Source: Bdellovibrionales bacterium | GTDB lineage: Bacteria > Bdellovibrionota > Bdellovibrionia > Bdellovibrionales > DASUEL01 | Reading direction: 5' to 3' | Assembly: GCA_050250255.1 (NCBI GenBank) | Contig: JBFWOZ010000005.1 | Span: forward strand, 32,001-96,000 | DNA length: 64,000 nucleotides | In this document: piece after piece, positions 31,201 through 63,235 of the stretch | How the letters are laid out: each line of letters starts with the position of its first letter | How positions within the stretch are numbered: position 1 is the stretch's first letter | Translations under genes and position numbers: made by a program | The notes under the pieces: generated by a model | What the model saw: the letters and a program-made list of their open reading frames with translations, nothing else | Databases searched by the model: none | Told to the model about the DNA's origin: nothing

Positions 31201-32037
31201 ATGCGCTGGCTCTTACTTACTTTTTTATATTTATCAATAGCTCAAGCTCATGCAACTCCACTCTCTTGTGGTGGCCTAAGCGGAGAAGACTATAGTCGTT
31301 TTTTTCGTAACAGTTCTACATTAGCTACAAAAAAAACTTATATTCCCAATATGTTAGAAGTTGAAGCCTATTTTAAGGAATGGCTTCTCAGCGAAAATAC
31401 AAGCCAAACCTTTAAAGAGATGTTTTTTCAACTCCATCACCTGGCTGCAAATGGAAGCTCCGGCCGTTCCACCTACCGCCCACCTAAATCCCCTCCCAAT
31501 ATGAGGATAGGAGAAAAAAGGCAAGTCGCTCCTGTTCATTTAATTTTTGATCAAACGGTCATTAAAGAAATTCTTAAGTTAACAAGTCTAGAATGGAGAA
31601 CTGATAGAGACGCCATCTATAGAATAAAATTGAGAGAGCCCCCTCCTGTCCTCCCCACTTTTTTTGCTCGTGGCGAAAAGCCCAATCGTGTCGGCCAAAT
31701 TGAAATGGTTCATGCGATGGATCATGAATTAGAAGCCATTCACTCCAAAATGTCACATTTGCTTTCGGAAATTCGTTTAGATCTACAGCAGAAAAAACCA
31801 ACGCGCACTGTGCTTGAAAAACTCGCTTACTACTACCAACTTGGTTGTTTCGCACACACCTTTGAACGTATTAATAATTCTATATTAATGGCTCAGGTGA
31901 ATGTTGTGCTCTCCTTACTTAGTATAACGCCGATCCCCCATGGTAATATGGATATGATTATGCGGTCAGTAGATACCGATAAGGCGACGGAATATTTTTT
32001 TCAGCAAATAGAGCATGTCAACGGACCCATAAAATAA
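31201..32037 (+). CDS. Exported protein with a divergent Fic/Fido domain
   Basis: Signal peptide ...AQAHA|T; LHHLAANG...GEKR, then LAYYYQLGCFAHTFERINNSILMAQVN aligning to HPFxxGNGR. Confidence 0.6.
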   Translation: MRWLLLTFLYLSIAQAHATPLSCGGLSGEDYSRFFRNSSTLATKKTYIPNMLEVEAYFKEWLLSENTSQTFKEMFFQLHHLAANGSSGRSTYRPPKSPPNMRIGEKRQVAPVHLIFDQTVIKEILKLTSLEWRTDRDAIYRIKLREPPPVLPTFFARGEKPNRVGQIEMVHAMDHELEAIHSKMSHLLSEIRLDLQQKKPTRTVLEKLAYYYQLGCFAHTFERINNSILMAQVNVVLSLLSITPIPHGNMDMIMRSVDTDKATEYFFQQIEHVNGPIK

Positions 32038-53973: not shown

Positions 53974-54969
53974 TTACTCCCCGTTTTGCAGCTTAAGAAG
54001 CTGAGCATGGGCCGTCAGTAAATGTTTTTCGAGATCTGGATTGAGAAGCTCGAGCGAGATCAGCACGAGTCCTCGAAGGGTTTCTGGAGGAAGGCCTTGG
54101 GATTCGTAGTATTTGAAGAATTCAAATCCGCCCCATCGGCATCCACTGGTAGTTTCTAATCGTTTTTCTTGGCCGGGAGGTAAGAGTTTTATTTTTAAGT
54201 GTTGAGCGAGTTCTTGTATGAACGCTTCGCCGTCGACGTCTTCAAATACAATCGCCGCCCGATCAAACAATCGCGATTTCCCCGAGGTAAAAAAGGGCTT
54301 AGAACCAGCAAGTTTTTTAGATTCGAAATCTTCCACTAATTTTTTGTTCTCTGTCACTTTTGAATATAGCTCCAGCTTCTCTAGATCGAGAGCGCGAACC
54401 CACTCTGACAGGCCTGCAATCATGGGCGGGAGCCTAGAGCACTTAGCTCCAAGTCTTGCCACCGAAATACGATCCGATACATTCATAAAGTAAGCTGCAA
54501 ACTGATGAATCGGCGGAACCTCTCTGCACAAATGAATTCCATGAAATACGGAGAGAGTAAAAATCTTCTTATTCGCAAGTTCGGCTCTTAACTTCTCAAG
54601 CCCAAAAATTTCTCCCGTCATCGGATCGTCAATCACATCCAGAAATAGAAGACAATCTTTGCTCAACTTTGAGAGCCAATCATCCATATTCCCAATATCT
54701 TTTACGTCGAGTGGCTCACCCTGCACGCCTTCAATCGAAAGACTCTGCACGATGGGATCAAAGTTCAATCCTGCACCTCTTAAATAAGCGAATTTTCTTT
54801 TGTGGGGATACATGCGTATGAGTCCGCGTGCGATCTCGTTCAAACCGGTGGAAAGATCAGGGTAGGCGCGGAGGGTTTCGACCGAGGTGCCCGGCTGAAT
54901 CCCTAAAGAGGATACGAGTTTTTTTTCAAACTCCTGAAGACGCTCCTCAGGGGGAAAGGGGAACTTCAT
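53974..54969 (-). CDS. Hypothetical protein, degenerate cysteine-desulfurase (IscS/NifS)-like fold
   Basis: IVFEDVDGEAFIQEL, TTSGC and GLPPETLRGLVLISL resemble the IscS C-terminal domain; no SxHK PLP motif. Confidence 0.5.
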   Translation of the reverse strand: MKFPFPPEERLQEFEKKLVSSLGIQPGTSVETLRAYPDLSTGLNEIARGLIRMYPHKRKFAYLRGAGLNFDPIVQSLSIEGVQGEPLDVKDIGNMDDWLSKLSKDCLLFLDVIDDPMTGEIFGLEKLRAELANKKIFTLSVFHGIHLCREVPPIHQFAAYFMNVSDRISVARLGAKCSRLPPMIAGLSEWVRALDLEKLELYSKVTENKKLVEDFESKKLAGSKPFFTSGKSRLFDRAAIVFEDVDGEAFIQELAQHLKIKLLPPGQEKRLETTSGCRWGGFEFFKYYESQGLPPETLRGLVLISLELLNPDLEKHLLTAHAQLLKLQNGE

Positions 54970-55417
54970 GAGTCACTCCCGCTCGCATAGATCTTGGTAC
55001 ATGCACGAGATCTATAACGAGATTTTTTGTTTGGAATTCGGGGTACACAAAGTTTTTAGCAAAACCTAAAGATTCCGTAGGACAATTGGTCACGCAAATT
55101 CCACACATCACACAGCTATTGTAATCCACTTTAAAGCTTTCAATCTCTCGCTCAAACGGAACACCCTTCGATGTGCTCGGACGACGAATGCTCGAAGAAT
55201 ACTCAAAACCTTGAATTTGGATCGCATTCATTGGGCAGATCGCTTCGCACTTAAGACATCCCGTACATTCTTTGAAATTATTTTTGATACTCGCACGGGC
55301 CGCGCCAGGAAGAGACTTCACCACAAAAGGGTACTCCACCGTAAATGGCGGAATTAAAAAAGTTCGGTAAATATGGCCGAACAAAAATCTGAGATGGTTA
55401 ATTAATAACTTCCACAT
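54947..55417 (-). CDS. NuoI-like 2x[4Fe-4S] ferredoxin (second copy)
   Basis: FTVEYP, CTGCLKCEAICP, FKVDYNSCVMCGICVTNCP. Confidence 0.85.
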   Translation of the reverse strand: MWKLLINHLRFLFGHIYRTFLIPPFTVEYPFVVKSLPGAARASIKNNFKECTGCLKCEAICPMNAIQIQGFEYSSSIRRPSTSKGVPFEREIESFKVDYNSCVMCGICVTNCPTESLGFAKNFVYPEFQTKNLVIDLVHVPRSMRAGVTHEVPLSP

Positions 55418-56481
55418 AGGTCCGACTGTCCAAACTCGATGCCAAGGCTTGCAACGGCAAGCTCATAATCATCGACGTAAAGGTCTACACACAGTTTTTC
55501 AACGATTCCTACCATTCTCATCGAATGGCTTGTGAGCCGCAATTGATTTTCGCAAGAAGTCCCATACAGAGGTCCAGATCCTGACTCCACACCCACATTC
55601 CAATAACCTGCGGGAGCAACAAGCTTTGGATCTACATCTACGCGTACAGGGCCCTCAACAATTTTATCTAAGCAGAATTCTAGAATTTCCAGAGATTGGC
55701 GAATTTGAAAAAAGACGGAACGTACCCGAGTCACACCGTCCCCTTGAACTTCACGAAACATTTTAGCTTCAAACCAATCGGTCGTACTTTGATAATCAAA
55801 ATAATGAAGATCACATTTATCATAAACGCCGTAGGGAGCATGAATACGCAAATCATGCTTCAATCCTGAAGCTTGCCCCAGTGGACCTAAAAAGGCGTAA
55901 GCAACCGCTTGTTCTTGCGTTAAAGGAAGTAGACCTACAAGTCTTTGTAAAACAAGCTGGTCTCTGGAGAGATCTTTAAAATAAAGTCTCAATTCGTATT
56001 CTAGGTTACGAATTAGGCTCTTCATCTTTTTTCTTTCTCCAATAGAAAGATCACGATCAATTCCGCCAATACAAAAAGTTTGGGGAAGAATGCGTGAGCC
56101 AGTGAGAAACTCTTGTCCTTCAAAAATTTGCTCACGCAGTCGATAAAGTTGCTGCGTACGAATAGGGTCATCAATCGCTTTAAAGATACGGATCAGATAT
56201 TGAAAACACCATGCGAGTCTTTGAACTTCCGCATAAATCGTTCGGAGATACTCTGCTCGTTCAGGGACTTGGATTTTGTGAGCTTTTTCAAGGGCCGCCG
56301 CAAGCACCCACTCAGAGGAAATCGCTTCAAAAGGTGAAAACCGATCCGCCCACTTGACAGACATCGCAATAGGCATGCGGTCCAATGTTTTCCATAGCGG
56401 TCTGTTCTCTGATCCCCAGGAAATTTCTACGCTCTTAATACGATCACCATTGTAGGTGATTTCTGAACGTTCGTTTAACAT
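55402..56481 (-). CDS. Divergent NuoD-like (49 kDa subunit family) protein
   Basis: IQVPERAEYLRTIYAEVQRL, TGSRI...IGGIDRDL, GPLGQASG...DLR...PY, GD...R, VESGSG. Confidence 0.75.
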   Translation of the reverse strand: MLNERSEITYNGDRIKSVEISWGSENRPLWKTLDRMPIAMSVKWADRFSPFEAISSEWVLAAALEKAHKIQVPERAEYLRTIYAEVQRLAWCFQYLIRIFKAIDDPIRTQQLYRLREQIFEGQEFLTGSRILPQTFCIGGIDRDLSIGERKKMKSLIRNLEYELRLYFKDLSRDQLVLQRLVGLLPLTQEQAVAYAFLGPLGQASGLKHDLRIHAPYGVYDKCDLHYFDYQSTTDWFEAKMFREVQGDGVTRVRSVFFQIRQSLEILEFCLDKIVEGPVRVDVDPKLVAPAGYWNVGVESGSGPLYGTSCENQLRLTSHSMRMVGIVEKLCVDLYVDDYELAVASLGIEFGQSDLCGSY

Positions 56482-56774
56482 GTGAGCAAGTTCTCCTGAA
56501 GTCTCTTTAAAATATGGCGCTGATTATTTGTGGAGATAAAAAAAGAAAACTCTTCATCTACGCTTGCAAAATAAAAGCGAACATAGAGTCCTTTTTGCGA
56601 GAAGAAATAAGAAAGCGGAAGACTTAAGCCCTGCTCTTTGAGTTTGTCGAGCTGAGAAAAAAGACGCTCTTCTTTAATTTCATAGGCCTCGTTCCCTCTT
56701 TCCTTTTGCACGGTGAGCGCCGGATTGGGAGAAAGAACCTTGTTAATTTCTGTTAGGTCCTTTGAGGGCTTCAT
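56475..56774 (-). CDS. Small hypothetical protein, possibly a reduced NuoC-like subunit
   Basis: Sits between the NuoB-like and NuoD-like genes with overlapping ends; only weak resemblance to the NuoC N-terminal half. Confidence 0.4.
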   Translation of the reverse strand: MKPSKDLTEINKVLSPNPALTVQKERGNEAYEIKEERLFSQLDKLKEQGLSLPLSYFFSQKGLYVRFYFASVDEEFSFFISTNNQRHILKRLQENLLTC

Positions 56775-57231
56775 AAATGACTTTCTTTTGATCCATTTGT
56801 GGCTTCTGTTTATTTCTTAAGGCTTGAATGGCTTCTAAAACTGCTTCCGGCCTTGGTGGGCATCCAGGTACAAAAACATCGACGGGCAAAACGTCAGAAA
56901 TTTTTAAAATCTTTTCACCCGACGCAGCATACGGAGCGCCCGAAAGAGCGCAAGCCCCAACGGCAATCACCGCACGAATCCCTGAGAGTTGAAAGTAAGC
57001 ACTTTTGAGTTCTTCTACGAATTGAGCATCCACCCACCCACCGACAATCATGACGTCGGCTTCTGATGGATGTTGAGCGACATTCTCTACGCCTAATCGA
57101 GTCCAATCATAGGTCGCCGTCGAAGCGTTTTCAACTTCAAGGTTACAGCAACCCTTTACCATGACCCATGGCACATGGACTTTTCTCTCAACCGCATCAA
57201 CAAGATTTTTGAGAGAAGAAAAAGTTGCCAT
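56743..57231 (-). CDS. Divergent NuoB-like Fe-S protein (second copy)
   Basis: GCCNLE, ADVMIVGG, IAVGACALSG, VDVFVPGCPPRPE. Confidence 0.85.
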   Translation of the reverse strand: MATFSSLKNLVDAVERKVHVPWVMVKGCCNLEVENASTATYDWTRLGVENVAQHPSEADVMIVGGWVDAQFVEELKSAYFQLSGIRAVIAVGACALSGAPYAASGEKILKISDVLPVDVFVPGCPPRPEAVLEAIQALRNKQKPQMDQKKVIYEALKGPNRN

Positions 57232-57755
57232 TAGATCCCCGCACGATGGCGTTCGTCTTCATCAAGAACTGAAACAATTCCACCTTGAAGAGCTGGTCTG
57301 TGAGCTAAATAATCAATGCCTTTTACAAAGTTTGTTCCTGATAATCCTGGTACTTGCCATTCAGGCCCCATACGAACTGCATCCACTGGGCATGCTTCTT
57401 CGCAGAAACCACAAAACACACAGCGGAGCATGTCGATTTCGTAAGCGATCGGAAATTTTTCAACGCTCGGGTCATTGTGCTCGCTCGCGATGATCGTAAT
57501 ACATTGAGCGGGACAGTTCGTCGCACATAACATACAAGCGGTACAACGAATCGATCCGTCTTTTTTCACTGTCAAAACATGCGTGCCCTTAAAACGAGGA
57601 GAGTATTCATACTTTTCCTCTGGATAATTCAAAGTCGGCATTCCTTTTTTGTAGAAAAGGTTCACGATCAAATTTTTAAAAGTAATCACAAGCCCAACGA
57701 GAATACCGGGAATATACCATTTCGCTAAGGGACTAGGTCGCTGTACGACACTCAT
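57231..57755 (-). CDS. nuoI: NADH-quinone oxidoreductase subunit I
   Basis: TLNYPEEK..SPRFKG, CTACMLCATNCP, RCVFCGFCEEACP. Confidence 0.95.
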   Translation of the reverse strand: MSVVQRPSPLAKWYIPGILVGLVITFKNLIVNLFYKKGMPTLNYPEEKYEYSPRFKGTHVLTVKKDGSIRCTACMLCATNCPAQCITIIASEHNDPSVEKFPIAYEIDMLRCVFCGFCEEACPVDAVRMGPEWQVPGLSGTNFVKGIDYLAHRPALQGGIVSVLDEDERHRAGI

Positions 57756-59227
57756 GCGTTCACCTCCGCGATAGTTGTTGCTGGAACACCCTTCATGTAG
57801 TGAACGGCTTCCGACAAGCTGACAGCCTCAGGAACAAAATTCACTCCACGCTTTACTTTGCGAATTTCGCCCGCATAATTCGTAAAAGTTCCATCTTTTT
57901 CCGCGAAAGACTTCATTGGAATTTGGTAAGAGAAGCCTGCAAACCCAGGAGATTTACAAGAGCTCAGCCAAATTACATCGGAAACTTTTGTGAGCGATTT
58001 TGCGACTGAATCAAGCTCTGGATAAACCGCGAGGTTTTCAGGACCTGCTACAACAACAGCTTTAATCGTTCCCGCCTCTACAAGCTTCATTAAATCTTTT
58101 AAAGATCCTTGAGCTCCAGAGTCTTTCATGACTTTTTGTAGACCCGCCGTATTTGGATTTTTATCTCCTCGGATCAATAAGCCGTCAAAAGTATCGAAAG
58201 TCGCTTCGTTGTTTTTCCAATGGAAAATATTCTTCGATTTCAGTTCTGTCGTAAAATACTTCGTAATATCGCTCAATTCCTCATTGGTGTACTGAGCCGT
58301 TAAAAGAAGTGCGATAGCTTGTGGTCCATGTTTTTTCAAAGTTTGCGCGGCTTGCTCAAGAGCTTCACGAGTGCTCAATTGACCATTTTTGCCTTGAGCA
58401 TGTCTTAATCGAGCTTCTAGGTTCACAAACTTATAAACATCGCGACCTTCATCGCACATCCAGTGACCGTTTACCTTTTCGTCGTAAACGGGCTTCACGC
58501 GGAAAAGACCATTCTGGTTGTGAGAGATTTTTACCGCACAACCGGTAGCACAGCCATTACAGGTCGTTTCAAAGTCTTTGAGATACCAAACGCGCTGACG
58601 AAAACGGAAATCTTTTGAAGTGAGAGCTCCCACCGGGCAAATATCCACCGTGTTCACGGAATATTTGTTATCGAGAGGACGATTCTCAAACGTACCGATT
58701 TCGCTGTGATCACCACGATTAAAAATTCCAAGTTCGTTTGTCTTTGTCACTTCTTCTGTAAAACGAACGCAACGAGAACAAAGAATACAGCGTTCGCTAT
58801 CAAGAACTACCGTTGGGCCAAGATCGACCACCTTGTGTTTTTTCTCTTTTTTCTCGCCCATTTCAGGATCGTATTTTCCGTAGGTCATGTAGAACTCTTG
58901 AAGCCCACATTCACCCGCTTGATCACAGATAGGACAATCAAGAGGGTGATTGATCAAATGGAAATCGAGAGTCCACTTTACACTCTCTTTTACTTTTTCT
59001 GTTTTGTTGGTGACCTTCATTCCCTCGACAACGGGAGTGTTACAGGCGATTTGAAGTTTGGGATTCCCCTCAACTTCCACCATACACATACGACAAACGC
59101 CCGCGACGGAAAGTCCAGGATGCCAACAGTAATAGGCAATATCCTCTTTCAGCTGACTGAAAGCTTCCATAATGGTGGCGCCATCTTTAACAACAACTTC
59201 TTTGCCGTTAATGGTGCATTTGGGCAT
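57752..59227 (-). CDS. nuoG: NADH-quinone oxidoreductase subunit G (short form, 491 aa)
   Basis: ATG 59227 (MPKCTING); CWHPGLSVAGVCRMC, HPLDCPICDQAGEC, CILCSRC, CNGCATGC. Confidence 0.93.
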   Translation of the reverse strand: MPKCTINGKEVVVKDGATIMEAFSQLKEDIAYYCWHPGLSVAGVCRMCMVEVEGNPKLQIACNTPVVEGMKVTNKTEKVKESVKWTLDFHLINHPLDCPICDQAGECGLQEFYMTYGKYDPEMGEKKEKKHKVVDLGPTVVLDSERCILCSRCVRFTEEVTKTNELGIFNRGDHSEIGTFENRPLDNKYSVNTVDICPVGALTSKDFRFRQRVWYLKDFETTCNGCATGCAVKISHNQNGLFRVKPVYDEKVNGHWMCDEGRDVYKFVNLEARLRHAQGKNGQLSTREALEQAAQTLKKHGPQAIALLLTAQYTNEELSDITKYFTTELKSKNIFHWKNNEATFDTFDGLLIRGDKNPNTAGLQKVMKDSGAQGSLKDLMKLVEAGTIKAVVVAGPENLAVYPELDSVAKSLTKVSDVIWLSSCKSPGFAGFSYQIPMKSFAEKDGTFTNYAGEIRKVKRGVNFVPEAVSLSEAVHYMKGVPATTIAEVNA

Positions 59228-60479
59228 AGCTCTTTCCTTCTCTGATGAACGTTTCAAATTCGTCACGAAATTTTGATACAAAACTAATAGCTGGTAATGC
59301 AGCGGCATCAGAAAGCGCGCAGATCGTTCGGCCCATCATGTTTTTAGAAACATTAAGTACGAGATCTAAATCTTGAGGTTTTCCTTGGCCTGCAACAATT
59401 TTACGAAGCATTTTATCAAGCCATCCAGTTCCTTCACGACAAGGAGTGCACTGACCGCAGGATTCATGATGATAGAAATTCATGATGACCGAGAGAAGAT
59501 CCACCATATCGCGCGAATCATCGATGATAATCACAGCCCCTGAACCAAGCATGGAACCCATTTGCGCAAGACATTCATAATCCATCGTCGCCATTTTACA
59601 TTCTTCAGCCGTTAACACCGGAGCGGAAGATCCACCTGGAATCACCGCTTTGAGTTTACGACCCGGTCGAAGGCCCCCACACTCATTATTTATGAGATCC
59701 ATTAATGGATATCCGAGAGCCACTTCGTAAGTTCCAGGCTTGAGCACATCTCCACTCACGGAGAAAAGCTTAGTGCCCGCAGATTTTTCAGTTCCAAATT
59801 TTCGGTAAGCGGCCGCACCATCGCGAATGATCGGGATCACTGCCGCTAAAGTTTCTACATTGTTCACGACGGTTGGTTTTCTTAAGTAACCTTTAACCGC
59901 TGGAAAAGGCGGCTTCAGCTTCGGCTGACCTTTCAATCCCTCAAGAGAAGATATCATTCCTGTCTCTTCTCCACAGATATAAGCACCTGCCCCGCGATAG
60001 ACATCCATGTCATGGTCAAAACCAGAACCTAAGATGTTTTTCCCGAGCATGCCTTCGTCGTAAGCTTCTTGAATCGCTTTTTCGAGGACTTTGTAAGCGT
60101 AATTATATTCACCACGAATGTAGATGTAACTTTTCTTCGATTGAATCGCGAAACTGGAAATGATCATGCCCTCAATCAATTGGTGAGGAGCACGCTCCAT
60201 CATCAAACGATCCTTGAAGGTTCCGGGCTCCCCTTCATCCGCATTGCAGAGAAGGTAACGTTCTTCATTGTTCTTGGGCAGAAAGCTCCACTTGGTTCCC
60301 GTAGGAAAGCCTGCGCCTCCACGACCACGAAGACCTGATTCTTTCACGGTGCCGATGAGCTCTTCAGGCTTCATTTTCAAAGCCTTTTTGAGAATGCTGT
60401 ATCCATCGTGCTTGATGTAGCCCTTAATGCCTCGGTACTCGTCTTTATCGTAATGTAATGTGAGGAGTTTTGATTCCAT
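59208..60479 (-). CDS. nuoF: NADH-quinone oxidoreductase subunit F
   Basis: GRGGAGFPTG, NADEGEPG, GAGAYICGEET, ESCGQCTPCREG. Confidence 0.97.
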   Translation of the reverse strand: MESKLLTLHYDKDEYRGIKGYIKHDGYSILKKALKMKPEELIGTVKESGLRGRGGAGFPTGTKWSFLPKNNEERYLLCNADEGEPGTFKDRLMMERAPHQLIEGMIISSFAIQSKKSYIYIRGEYNYAYKVLEKAIQEAYDEGMLGKNILGSGFDHDMDVYRGAGAYICGEETGMISSLEGLKGQPKLKPPFPAVKGYLRKPTVVNNVETLAAVIPIIRDGAAAYRKFGTEKSAGTKLFSVSGDVLKPGTYEVALGYPLMDLINNECGGLRPGRKLKAVIPGGSSAPVLTAEECKMATMDYECLAQMGSMLGSGAVIIIDDSRDMVDLLSVIMNFYHHESCGQCTPCREGTGWLDKMLRKIVAGQGKPQDLDLVLNVSKNMMGRTICALSDAAALPAISFVSKFRDEFETFIREGKSYAQMHH

Positions 60480-60486
60480 CTTCTAC

Positions 60487-60993
60487 CTACTTGAATTCCG
60501 CAATCAGTTTATCGATTTTTTCTTGAGTGAGATTTTCATAGTATTCGTCGTTCACTTGCATCATGGGAGCAGTTCCGCAAGAACCCAAGCACTCCACTTT
60601 CGTGACCGTGAATTTTCCATCTTTTGTCATCTCATCAAGGCCCACTTGAAATTTATTGAGAAGCTTCTGCGTGATTTCACGCCCTCCAGCCATACAGCAA
60701 GAGATGTTACAGCAAACTTGAATATGATATTTGCCCACGGGTTTTTTGTTAAACATCGTGTAGAACATCGCCACTTCTTGAATACGAGCCGGTGGAATAT
60801 CCATCTCTTTTGAAAGAGTGTCGATGACCTCAGGGCTGATCCAGCCATTTTCCTTTTGCGCTTGATAGAGGCAAGGAATGATCGCCGACATTTTATCTTC
60901 ATAGCGATCCAATTCTTTTTTCACTAAGTCTTGGCCTTCTTTTGAAAGCTTAAAGGGAGCAGAATGTAGTTTTTCTTGTTGTGCCATCATCAA
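60487..60993 (-). CDS. nuoE: NADH-quinone oxidoreductase subunit E
   Basis: FYTMF, VCCNISC, VECLGSCGTAP. Confidence 0.95.
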   Translation of the reverse strand: MMMAQQEKLHSAPFKLSKEGQDLVKKELDRYEDKMSAIIPCLYQAQKENGWISPEVIDTLSKEMDIPPARIQEVAMFYTMFNKKPVGKYHIQVCCNISCCMAGGREITQKLLNKFQVGLDEMTKDGKFTVTKVECLGSCGTAPMMQVNDEYYENLTQEKIDKLIAEFK

Positions 60994-60996
60994 CTC

Positions 60997-62676
60997 CTAT
61001 CGATCCAATTCGCCAGCAATTAAATTGAGGCTTCCCAAAATCGAAATCACATCCGCCACAGGACCGCCCGTAATCATTTTTGGAAATGACTGATAAATCG
61101 CAAAACAAGGTGGTCGTGCTCTTAATCGGTAAGGTGCAGGGCCACCGTCACTCACCACAAAAAATCCAAGCTCCCCGTTTGCAGCTTCGGTTGCATCATA
61201 GATCTCGCCAGCCGGAGGTCTGAGACCCTTAATCACAAGCATGAAGTGGTTCATGAGGCCTTCAATGTTTCCGTAAACTTCTTTTTTCTCTGGAAGAACG
61301 ATGTTTTTGTCGCGAATGGTGTAATCCCCACCCGGAGCGTTCTTGGCCACTTGTTCAACAATCGAAAGAGATTCTTTCATCTCTGCCAAACGCACGAGGT
61401 AACGATCGTAAACATCGCCCGTTGTTCCTACTGGAACATCAAAATCAAGCGTTTCGTATCCGTAATAAGGATCTGCTTTACGAAGATCTAGACTCATGCC
61501 CGTAGCTCTTAAGCAAGGACCAGTAAATCCATACTGAATCGCTTCTTCCACTGAGATACCACCCACACCGCGGGTTCGCGAGATCCAGATTTTGTTATTG
61601 GTAAGAAGAGCATCGATTTCGTCGACACCTTTACGAATGTCTTTCACGGCCTCAAGCACATCGTTGAACCAACCTGGAGGAGCATCGTAAGACATTCCAC
61701 CAATACGAGTGAGAGAAACGGTCAAACGTGCACCACAAAGTTTTTCAAAAAGAGAGTAAACACGTTCACGATGCGTGAAGAGATAAAAGAAACCTGTAAG
61801 GGCTCCTAAATCCACCGCGTTCGCGCCGATACAGACGATATGATCAATCACGCGAGAGAGCTCTGCCAAAATAATCCGCATGGCTTTTGCTTTTGGCGGA
61901 ATATCAATGCCGTACATTTTTTCAATCGCCTTACAGTAACCCACATTATTCATAGGCGCCGAACAATAATTGAGACGATCTGTGTACGGAATGACTTGAT
62001 TATAAAAGTGAGTTTCGCCCATCTTTTCAAAACAGCGATGAAGAAATCCTAACTCCACTCCCGCGCGCGCTACGGTCTCACCATCAAGTTGCGCCATCAC
62101 CCGAAGAGTTCCGTGAGTCGCTGGGTGAGAAGGACCGATATTGAGAGGCATTAATTTTTTATCGGGATCTGGTTTATAAGTATCATCGTCTTCAAAGTGA
62201 AGAGGCATCACATCAGGACAATGTTGCTGGTAATCCGCTGGATAATCTTTACGAAGCGGGTGTCCCTTAAAGTGATGGTGAGTGAGAATTTTTTTAAGAT
62301 TGTGGTGACCACGAAACTTCACACCGAACATGTCAAAGGCTTCGCGCTCAAACCAATCGGCACCTTTCCAAACGGTGGTCGCCGTATCGATACTTTCGTT
62401 TTCCCCTACTTGAGCTTTAATACGAAGACGTTTTACCGTTTTCGAGGAGAACAGCTGATAGATCACTTCGAAACGCTTTTCGCGTATCGGGTAATCCACC
62501 GCCGTGACGTCCATCAAAAAATCAAACTGACCTGTTTGTTTTAAGTGGCGAAGAACCGGAATGACCTGTTCTTTTTTGAGTTCTAAAATATCGTTGCCGA
62601 AAGCCGTAGAAAATTTCATTTCTGAAGCCGGAACAAGATGACTTAAATCTGATTTTAAATTTTCGATATTGCTCAT
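60997..62676 (-). CDS. nuoCD: NADH-quinone oxidoreductase fused subunit C/D
   Basis: WFEREAFDMFG, GHPLRKDYP, NIGPSHPATHG, DRLNY, GELDR C-terminus. Confidence 0.96.
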   Translation of the reverse strand: MSNIENLKSDLSHLVPASEMKFSTAFGNDILELKKEQVIPVLRHLKQTGQFDFLMDVTAVDYPIREKRFEVIYQLFSSKTVKRLRIKAQVGENESIDTATTVWKGADWFEREAFDMFGVKFRGHHNLKKILTHHHFKGHPLRKDYPADYQQHCPDVMPLHFEDDDTYKPDPDKKLMPLNIGPSHPATHGTLRVMAQLDGETVARAGVELGFLHRCFEKMGETHFYNQVIPYTDRLNYCSAPMNNVGYCKAIEKMYGIDIPPKAKAMRIILAELSRVIDHIVCIGANAVDLGALTGFFYLFTHRERVYSLFEKLCGARLTVSLTRIGGMSYDAPPGWFNDVLEAVKDIRKGVDEIDALLTNNKIWISRTRGVGGISVEEAIQYGFTGPCLRATGMSLDLRKADPYYGYETLDFDVPVGTTGDVYDRYLVRLAEMKESLSIVEQVAKNAPGGDYTIRDKNIVLPEKKEVYGNIEGLMNHFMLVIKGLRPPAGEIYDATEAANGELGFFVVSDGGPAPYRLRARPPCFAIYQSFPKMITGGPVADVISILGSLNLIAGELDR

Positions 62677-62677
62677 G

Positions 62678-63235
62678 TTATTTCATCCACTCAGGTGGTT
62701 TCCAGTTGTCTTTCCAAGGTCGCGGAGCATAGGTCTCAATCATTTTCTGAATCGCCATCACTCCATCAAGCACAGCTTCAGGTGAGGGAGGGCAACCCGG
62801 AACATACACATCCACAGGAATCACTTTGTCGATTCCTTGAAGCACGTGATAGGCGCGGTAAAATCCACCAGAACTTGCACAAGCTCCCATAGAAAGAACA
62901 AATTTTGGTTCCAACATCTGTCGGTAAATATGCACAAGAACCGGCGCCATTTTTTCAGTAATCGTACCAGCTACAAGAAGAAGATCTGCTTGTCTTGGAG
63001 AGAATCGCACCACCTCTGCTCCGAATCGAGCTAAGTCATATTTTGGACCCATCACCGACATAAGCTCGATTCCGCAACAAGCAGTCCCGTAAGGAAGCGG
63101 CCACAGAGAATTTTTTTGTCCCCAAGCTACTAAATCTTGAAGTCGTGTTGTGAACACCGAGCTTTTTAAAAACTCATCCACTTCGTGGGAAGCTGGTGTC
63201 GCCGCATCAGTATTCGACGTCGCAGATACATTCAT
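62678..63235 (-). CDS. nuoB: NADH-quinone oxidoreductase subunit B
   Basis: [38 protein letters not shown]. Confidence 0.97.

Follow-up and report, generated by a model that had tools for sequence, protein, structure and literature searches.

Complex I-like enzymes of 11 subunits that lack NuoEFG are known (PMC3144371, PMC11238625 and PMC4453560, cited from partial text), and two complex I isozymes are found in about 3% of genomes, where they are treated as enzymes, no stripped copy, nor any that outlives its active partner, being described in the part of the text available (PMC4453560). The main text of that paper, in the same part, makes no mention of Bdellovibrio, and the available portion of the Peredibacter genome description gives split nuo clusters and mentions no degenerate copy (PMC13147790). 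No description of a stripped complex I was found in the literature searched, most subscription journals being outside the search. Here we analysed a stretch of 64,000 nucleotides (the window; positions 32,001 to 96,000 of the forward strand of contig JBFWOZ010000005.1, assembly GCA_050250255.1) from a Bdellovibrionales bacterium, in which four genes, B2, C2, D2 and I2, directly follow the head genes of a canonical nuo operon. Together they make up the head of a second complex I, encoded by 11 genes, whose own eroded membrane arm lies on another contig. According to our analysis, this is very probably a complex I that has lost its catalysis and is kept under selection for a task of its own. It is a new variant of complex I, and its function is probably non-respiratory.

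Judged by its sequences, the stripped complex descends from the 11-subunit complex I-like family and fails the catalytic tests of that family. Common to both are the subunit set A B C D H I J K L M N (A, K, L and M being assigned here by position), the separate C and D, the lack of an N-module, and intact orthologues in other classes of the phylum; the differences are the missing quinone His, Tyr and Asp, the absence of pump residues from H2, J2 and the N2 subunit, and short L2 and M2. Genomes with two isozymes likewise carry two phylogenetically distinct complexes (PMC4453560, partial text), whereas here one of the two is stripped under selection. Group 4 [NiFe]-hydrogenases (Hyc, MBH) and MBS (PMC8165549, partial text) share the B/C/D/I core and the membrane anchor, but the window module has no four Ni cysteines, and its tandem CC is not the hydrogenase- or MBS-type proximal ligation. 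The canonical 14-subunit complex I (Nuo of E. coli) has the same folds, tandem-CC site of cluster N2, two NuoI clusters and gene order, and differs by an identity of 24–35%, a separate branch and the lack of catalytic residues in the window module.

The four open reading frames (ORFs) lie on the minus strand directly after the nuo head, as the first-pass annotation had placed them: B2, NuoB-like (56743..57231, 162 amino acids, aa; Pfam Oxidored_q6, E 1e-21); C2, a shortened NuoC-like alpha/beta domain (56475..56774, 99 aa, no Pfam match); D2, NuoD-like (55402..56481, 359 aa; Complex1_49kDa, E 3e-28); and I2, a NuoI-like 2[4Fe-4S] protein (54947..55417, 156 aa, two Fer4 matches). The nuoI stop and the B2 start share the sequence TAATG, and the remaining head junctions overlap. 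Identities of B2, D2 and I2 to the canonical copies are 35%, 24% and 30%. The doubtful NuoC-like call for C2 gained from structure what it did not gain from profile comparison with NuoC (E 0.25, unconfirmed). Foldseek returned no match at E<=0.001 for the AlphaFold model of C2 (predicted local distance difference test, pLDDT, 87), and in VIA-align the top 12 rows were all NuoC/Nqo5/NDUFS3, with 84–97 of the 99 residues aligned at modest Z values of 4.3–5.6. This suggests that C2 folds like NuoC. It is absent from two related loci and, to judge by an N-terminal extension, apparently fused to D2 in two more.

The iron-sulfur (Fe-S) sites of the head are intact, and its catalytic site is not. The four cysteines of B2 that ligate cluster N2 (tandem CC, GxC and PGCPP) are invariant in 16/16 orthologues, and the eight cysteines of the two CxxCxxCxxxC motifs of I2 in 15/15, so that all 12 Fe-S cysteines are retained. 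In D2, the loss of the quinone His loop and Tyr and the lack of Ni-CxxC, as previously claimed, extend to all 13 aligned rows, and the Asp is gone too: H38, Y87 and D139 (Thermus numbering), the NuoD residues with roles at the quinone site (PMC4758237, partial text), are each found in 0/13. The former Tyr is Pro in eight of the 13. There is no Cys at the Ni-site positions of D2 and no two-Cys vestige. The marks of MBS and Ehr, non-tandem ligation and residual Ni-site Cys, are therefore absent, B2 having the tandem CC and D2 no such Cys. The description of the module as a scaffold that is neither a quinone reductase nor a hydrogenase thus agrees with our data. Conserved positions that differ from the active enzymes number 15 in D2 (its own conserved residues include W44, E52, W91, P133 and Q134), seven in B2 and nine in I2.

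The membrane arm of complex I carries a charged axis (PMC8165549, partial text). The window module had been taken for a head-only add-on to the nuo operon; this has to be corrected, since an arm matching the head lies on a second contig (contig C2:55520-61089, outside the window), where seven co-oriented hydrophobic ORFs of about 106, 289, 131, 100, 428, 350 and 482 aa stand directly upstream of nuoA in the A-H-J-K-L-M-N pattern. The canonical arm, nuoA-N, is on the same contig near 48.2–55.5 kb. Pfam found no significant Nuo family in the seven ORFs, and in the whole genome it found one NuoH and three antiporter matches, all canonical. When profiles were compared with canonical Bdellovibrionales subunits only, just the N2 subunit matched (E 1e-3); the H2 and J2 matches emerged after less-eroded copies had been added. 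H2 then matched the NuoH profile (93.5%, E 2e-7, 215 columns), the N2 subunit the NuoN profile (98.5%, E 2e-15, 413 columns) and J2, weakly, the NuoJ profile (45%, E 2e-4), and in a 7x7 profile matrix each of the three matched its own subunit best. Extra homologues failed to make M2 alignable. A model of the N2 subunit built from stripped orthologues only (n=17; pLDDT 73, predicted template-modelling score 0.75) matched NuoN/Nad2/MrpD, with template-modelling (TM) scores of 0.64–0.71 for the best NuoN-type rows. The charged residues of NuoN and NuoH and the Tyr of NuoJ have functional roles in the proton channels. In the stripped arm, the N2 subunit has P, F, P and F at E. coli E133, K217, K247 and K395, H2 is without most acidic channel residues in an alignment with the E. 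coli reference, J2 has Leu at E. coli Y59, and L2 and M2 are shortened to 428 and 350 aa.

Orthologues of D2 were found in 13 of 384 genomes of the order, in four small families; nine of the 13 had contributed to the search profile. In total, 29 of the 384 matched that profile; 16 of these reached only E 1e-31 to 1e-34 and were counted as ordinary NuoD, G007 and G028 being the two that were inspected. One more D2 in the sister order (G568) gives 14 D2-positive genomes. The arm occupies the nuoA site in 10 of the 14 (as a fragment only in G001 and cut by the contig end in G034) and in 0/13 D2-negative genomes; the site was assessable in all D2-positive genomes except G381. An N2-subunit profile, for which there was no positive control, found no match in four genomes of family f8 and in G381.

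The module is under purifying selection, as far as can be judged from simple NG86 counts of the ratio of nonsynonymous to synonymous divergence (dN/dS), in which 13 of 27 stripped-gene comparisons had saturated dS (synonymous proportion pS 0.75–0.82 versus nonsynonymous pN 0.05–0.30). Where dS was measurable, values ranged from 0.008 to 0.30. In the pair G034/G025 (dS from 0.6 to saturated), dN/dS was 0.022 for B2, 0.008 for I2, 0.042 for D2, 0.066 for K2 and 0.12 for L2, compared with 0.009–0.024 for ten canonical genes; identity was 98% for B2, 98% for I2 (dS about 2.3), 94% for D2 and 93% for H2. Other pairs gave 0.018–0.30, and B2 gave 0.02–0.24 in four pairs. Constraint was highest on B2, I2, D2 and H2 and lowest on the distal arm, in L2. 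The earlier argument against simple decay gains weight from these comparisons: none of the 13 D2 matches has an internal stop, the cysteines are invariant and dN/dS stays well below 1.

In other classes of the phylum, a second system stands at the same site, beside a divergent gene of about 1,170 aa, which was confirmed as mfd in five genomes. Two tandem arms and a stand-alone B-C-D-I are present in five genomes, and the first arms keep the pump residues; the stand-alone D has the quinone triad in 9/9 cases. At ten loci with a contiguous stripped operon, His is lost in 10/10, Asp in 10/10 and Tyr in 7/10 (replaced by Pro in 6/10), together with nearly all pump residues, and the NuoI motifs are retained in 8/8 copies.

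In a B+D+I tree (39 of 41 rows, Ehr sequences left out), which was the phylogeny against complex I that had been suggested, the window module grouped with the contiguous stripped operons (Shimodaira–Hasegawa-like approximate likelihood ratio test, SH-aLRT, 99); the intact 11-subunit heads and an unrelated additional operon fell on its side of the tree, apart from the 14-subunit heads (98, 100). Grouping with the canonical heads of the class was rejected by the approximately unbiased (AU) test on 24 of 41 rows with long branches (p-AU 1.2e-6). A recent duplicate of the neighbouring nuo genes is rejected by this value, and the idea of a copy of the adjacent operon gives way to an ancient 11-subunit complex. 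Orthology is carried by synteny, because the long branches leave exact placement unsure. The ancestor of the phylum would have carried the 11-subunit and 14-subunit complexes in tandem, and either copy may have been able to shed its chemistry and then have been kept for a second job.

Several operons of unusual composition were observed in this context. G007 (L043 266-10027) has an extra NuoEFG-less operon with intact quinone motifs on a separate branch, perhaps acquired, adjoining genes that look from sequence like 2-oxoacid oxidoreductases. In G384, one operon has the odd order L-L-N-J-K-A-B-C-D-H-I and a B without the tandem CC (L125 10536-19000), and a second contiguous copy is heavily eroded (L126 3086-8697). 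The stripped contiguous operons of f32 and f37 (L092 4461-7549, L096 3988-7240) have four large membrane ORFs instead of three, as with an extra antiporter subunit.

The mirror image of this erosion was found in family f22, which we take to be Bacteriovoracaceae, where the NuoF match is missing from 36 of 61 genomes. Both a stand-alone D and a fused CD are present in 26 of these 36, the stand-alone D alone in five and the fused CD alone in five. Three f22 genomes examined in full have an intact 11-subunit complex, a stripped 14-subunit copy and seven eroded ORFs after the intact arm; in the tree, two stripped 14-subunit heads share a branch with the canonical head of the family (99). The quinone triad is missing in 14/14 inspected fused CD, the NuoI motifs are kept in 10/10 full-length mirror copies, and the cluster N2 cysteines are lost in seven. 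In the five fused-only genomes, which are 96–99% complete, neither NuoH nor NuoB was matched at E<=1, NuoF had no match, and an NqrB-type gene is present in 5/5. Their B-CD-I frames are open, with both I clusters kept and the cluster N2 cysteines gone, and nothing is left at the mfd site but a cassette of seven membrane ORFs whose sizes follow the same pattern (4/4 fetched). In a pair of such lone copies, CD had dN 0.26 at dS of about 3. Both copies are eroded in G381 (85% complete, with an NqrB-type gene). Related copies can thus do without NuoEFG and without an active partner, and some also without cluster N2. No NqrB match was found in the window genome itself, which depends on its canonical complex.

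Further observations concern the same genomes. Many NuoF-less f22 genomes appear to run an intact 11-subunit complex I, and G584, a 0.9-Mb genome, has only the 11-subunit complex. At nearly all f22 loci seen (L116 12475-13995, L134-L144), the 14-subunit-type nuoB is preceded by a protein of about 500 aa that has 9–13 cysteines and begins like a lipoprotein, and a protein of about 1,050 aa with what resembles a GYF-like start follows the membrane arm. In G381 (L079 1-3542, L127 6013-7617), the 14-subunit complex is eroded in open frames: there is no NuoE ORF between CD and F, NuoF is below the family cut-off, CD is without His38, the NuoG and NuoI cysteines are kept, and the stripped 11-subunit head comes after it.

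Based on these results, we tentatively favour, with confidence falling just short of even, an Fe-S platform that is tethered to the membrane and on which redox partners dock for sensing or buffering, because no other cofactor sites last as long across the kin copies as the NuoI motifs. The B2-C2-D2-I2 head would assemble with its own arm into a non-catalytic scaffold. Its B and D subunits would form a pedestal anchored in the membrane by way of H, and the ferredoxin-type NuoI domain that it carries would place its 4Fe-4S clusters on the cytoplasmic side of the membrane. These clusters would serve as a docking point for soluble redox partners and not as part of a respiratory pump; neither quinone reduction nor proton pumping is predicted. 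The specific redox-docking job is the least supported step and should be seen as possible rather than probable. The persistence of lone stripped heads argues against decay, a NuoEFG-fed exit arm and an obligate active partner as the general role. The regulatory paralogue put forward in the first-pass annotation is a possible function as well.

Of the other explanations, a pure structural scaffold fares best, doubtful as it is: a dead complex would organise the membrane or other complexes, or twin active complex I, with clusters that only stabilise the fold. The related Mrp and MBS complexes are dimers (PMC7419157 and PMC8165549, partial text). Whichever copy is eroded, all 11 genes are kept; the cluster N2 cysteines can be lost, and both heads persist side by side in most NuoF-less f22 genomes. 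All of this would suit a scaffold. The twin or placeholder form is not general, however: no active complex I is detectable in the five fused-only genomes, which still keep a stripped head, and in G381 erosion has reached both copies. The earlier suggestion of an assembly or placeholder module does not hold as a general role for the same reason. The distal arm, where contacts might be expected, shows less conservation than any other part. Our former working idea, in which the stripped complex was an obligate twin of the active one, was dropped after the lone copies had been found.

A slowly decaying remnant under weak constraint, imposed by operon context or by the avoidance of misfolded membrane protein, is unlikely. 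It would account for the graded series from intact to stripped to absent, for orthologue identities down to about 22% (D2) and below 20% (arm subunits), for the sparse occurrence in the order and for four further-eroded f22 heads; the open frames of all D2, the high identity within the G034/G025 pair, the low dN of the lone-copy CD at its dS and the lineage-specific conserved residues stand against it. It is quite unlikely that B2-C2-D2-I2 is the alternative electron-exit arm of the first-pass annotation, taking electrons from canonical NuoEFG via N6a-N6b-N2 to a non-quinone acceptor. The head is co-operonic with nuoEFG in the window and most relatives, all three cluster sites are invariant in the window lineage, and the f8 heads are kept without an arm at the usual site; but the head lies far from nuoEFG in G037 and G275, no acceptor gene co-occurs, and mirror copies persist without NuoF and often without N2, so the exit arm fails as a general explanation, though in the window genome itself it may, like the placeholder role, still apply. 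It is very unlikely that the module is an active enzyme of the Ehr, MBS or hydrogenase kind that acts on another substrate. Among PDB sequences, the D2 profile matches the MBH large subunit best, by a narrow margin (125.7 versus 122.9 bits for NuoCD), and the 11 closest D2 share a nearly invariant Cys at the C-terminus, but this Cys is missing from distant D2, there is no Ni-CxxC, the tandem CC of B2 is of complex I/NDH type (PMC8165549, partial text), the arm is in NuoA/J/K order without pump residues, and the nearest intact relatives are quinone-site-bearing NuoD.

Several points weigh against a docking platform and, in part, against any independent job of the stripped complex. In 371 of the 384 genomes of the order the module was not found, three f8 genomes have the head and no arm at the nuoA site, and no partner or acceptor gene co-occurs specifically with the module. 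A2, K2, L2 and M2 are without a profile match and were assigned by position, size and hydrophobicity only, and the ESM Atlas gave no usable match for L2; likewise, the lone-copy cassettes have no significant profile match to Nuo subunits, their homology being positional only. The tree has long branches and comes from a quick search with SH-aLRT support only, so its details are unsure. Four mirror genomes are further eroded, with I lacking the full motif in one and no I-like ORF listed in three. What the lone copies show is drawn from the mirror copy, which is of 14-subunit descent, and from G381, and would bear on the window genome by analogy. The fold may need the clusters, and the cysteines may owe their conservation to this alone; the assembly of head and arm, the binding of clusters and the existence of partners are inferred.

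On the minus strand of the window, the gene order is nuoB, nuoCD, E, F, a short G, nuoI, B2, C2, D2, I2 and a 331-aa ORF, all abutting or overlapping; the canonical nuoB-CD-E-F-G-I head of the active 14-subunit complex I, with fused nuoCD, spans 57231..63235. Scans for promoters and terminators were at chance level (7 versus 5.9 expected; 9 versus 5.6). NuoG (57752-59227, minus strand) has about 490 aa (491), within the range of about 470–560 aa over the loci of the order; that of E. coli has 908 aa. Between nuoI and B2, G001 of the same family has a 1.9-kb insertion (L035 5100-6950) and G003 (L040) a 4-kb insertion of three genes.

The 331-aa ORF (53974..54969, minus strand), which overlaps I2, is an IscS/NifS-like pseudo-desulfurase with homology to 1ecx (E 2.8e-4) and 457 clusters in a representative library. 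D114, E216, R233, D236, R237 and W279 are conserved; no Cys is well conserved (the catalytic Cys is below 70% in 151 rows), and Lys-rich columns occur only at 57, 58, 104 and 134, none at the expected pyridoxal phosphate position. It is present in 23 of 41 genomes of the order, many without D2, and was rejected as part of the stripped module, as it is also near the canonical head in module-less genomes: it shares the operon but is not specific to the module. In many holders it sits near the canonical nuo head and is a candidate complex I accessory factor.

Overall, about 10 kb of genes keep their frames, folds and Fe-S sites after the loss of their chemistry, even where no active complex I is detectable. 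Pipeline labels on these proteins (NuoD, hydrogenase or hypothetical) misread the metabolism of the genomes concerned. The series from intact to stripped copies provides a natural map of pumping and quinone residues as against those for assembly. Pseudo-enzymes are usually single proteins; in Bdellovibrionota, it is on balance slightly probable that on at least two occasions, and from either ancestral copy, a whole complex I became a pseudo-enzyme machine whose function is non-respiratory and outlives complex I respiration. If so, complex I would have a separable non-catalytic role, a hidden second role of its architecture that could be studied alone.

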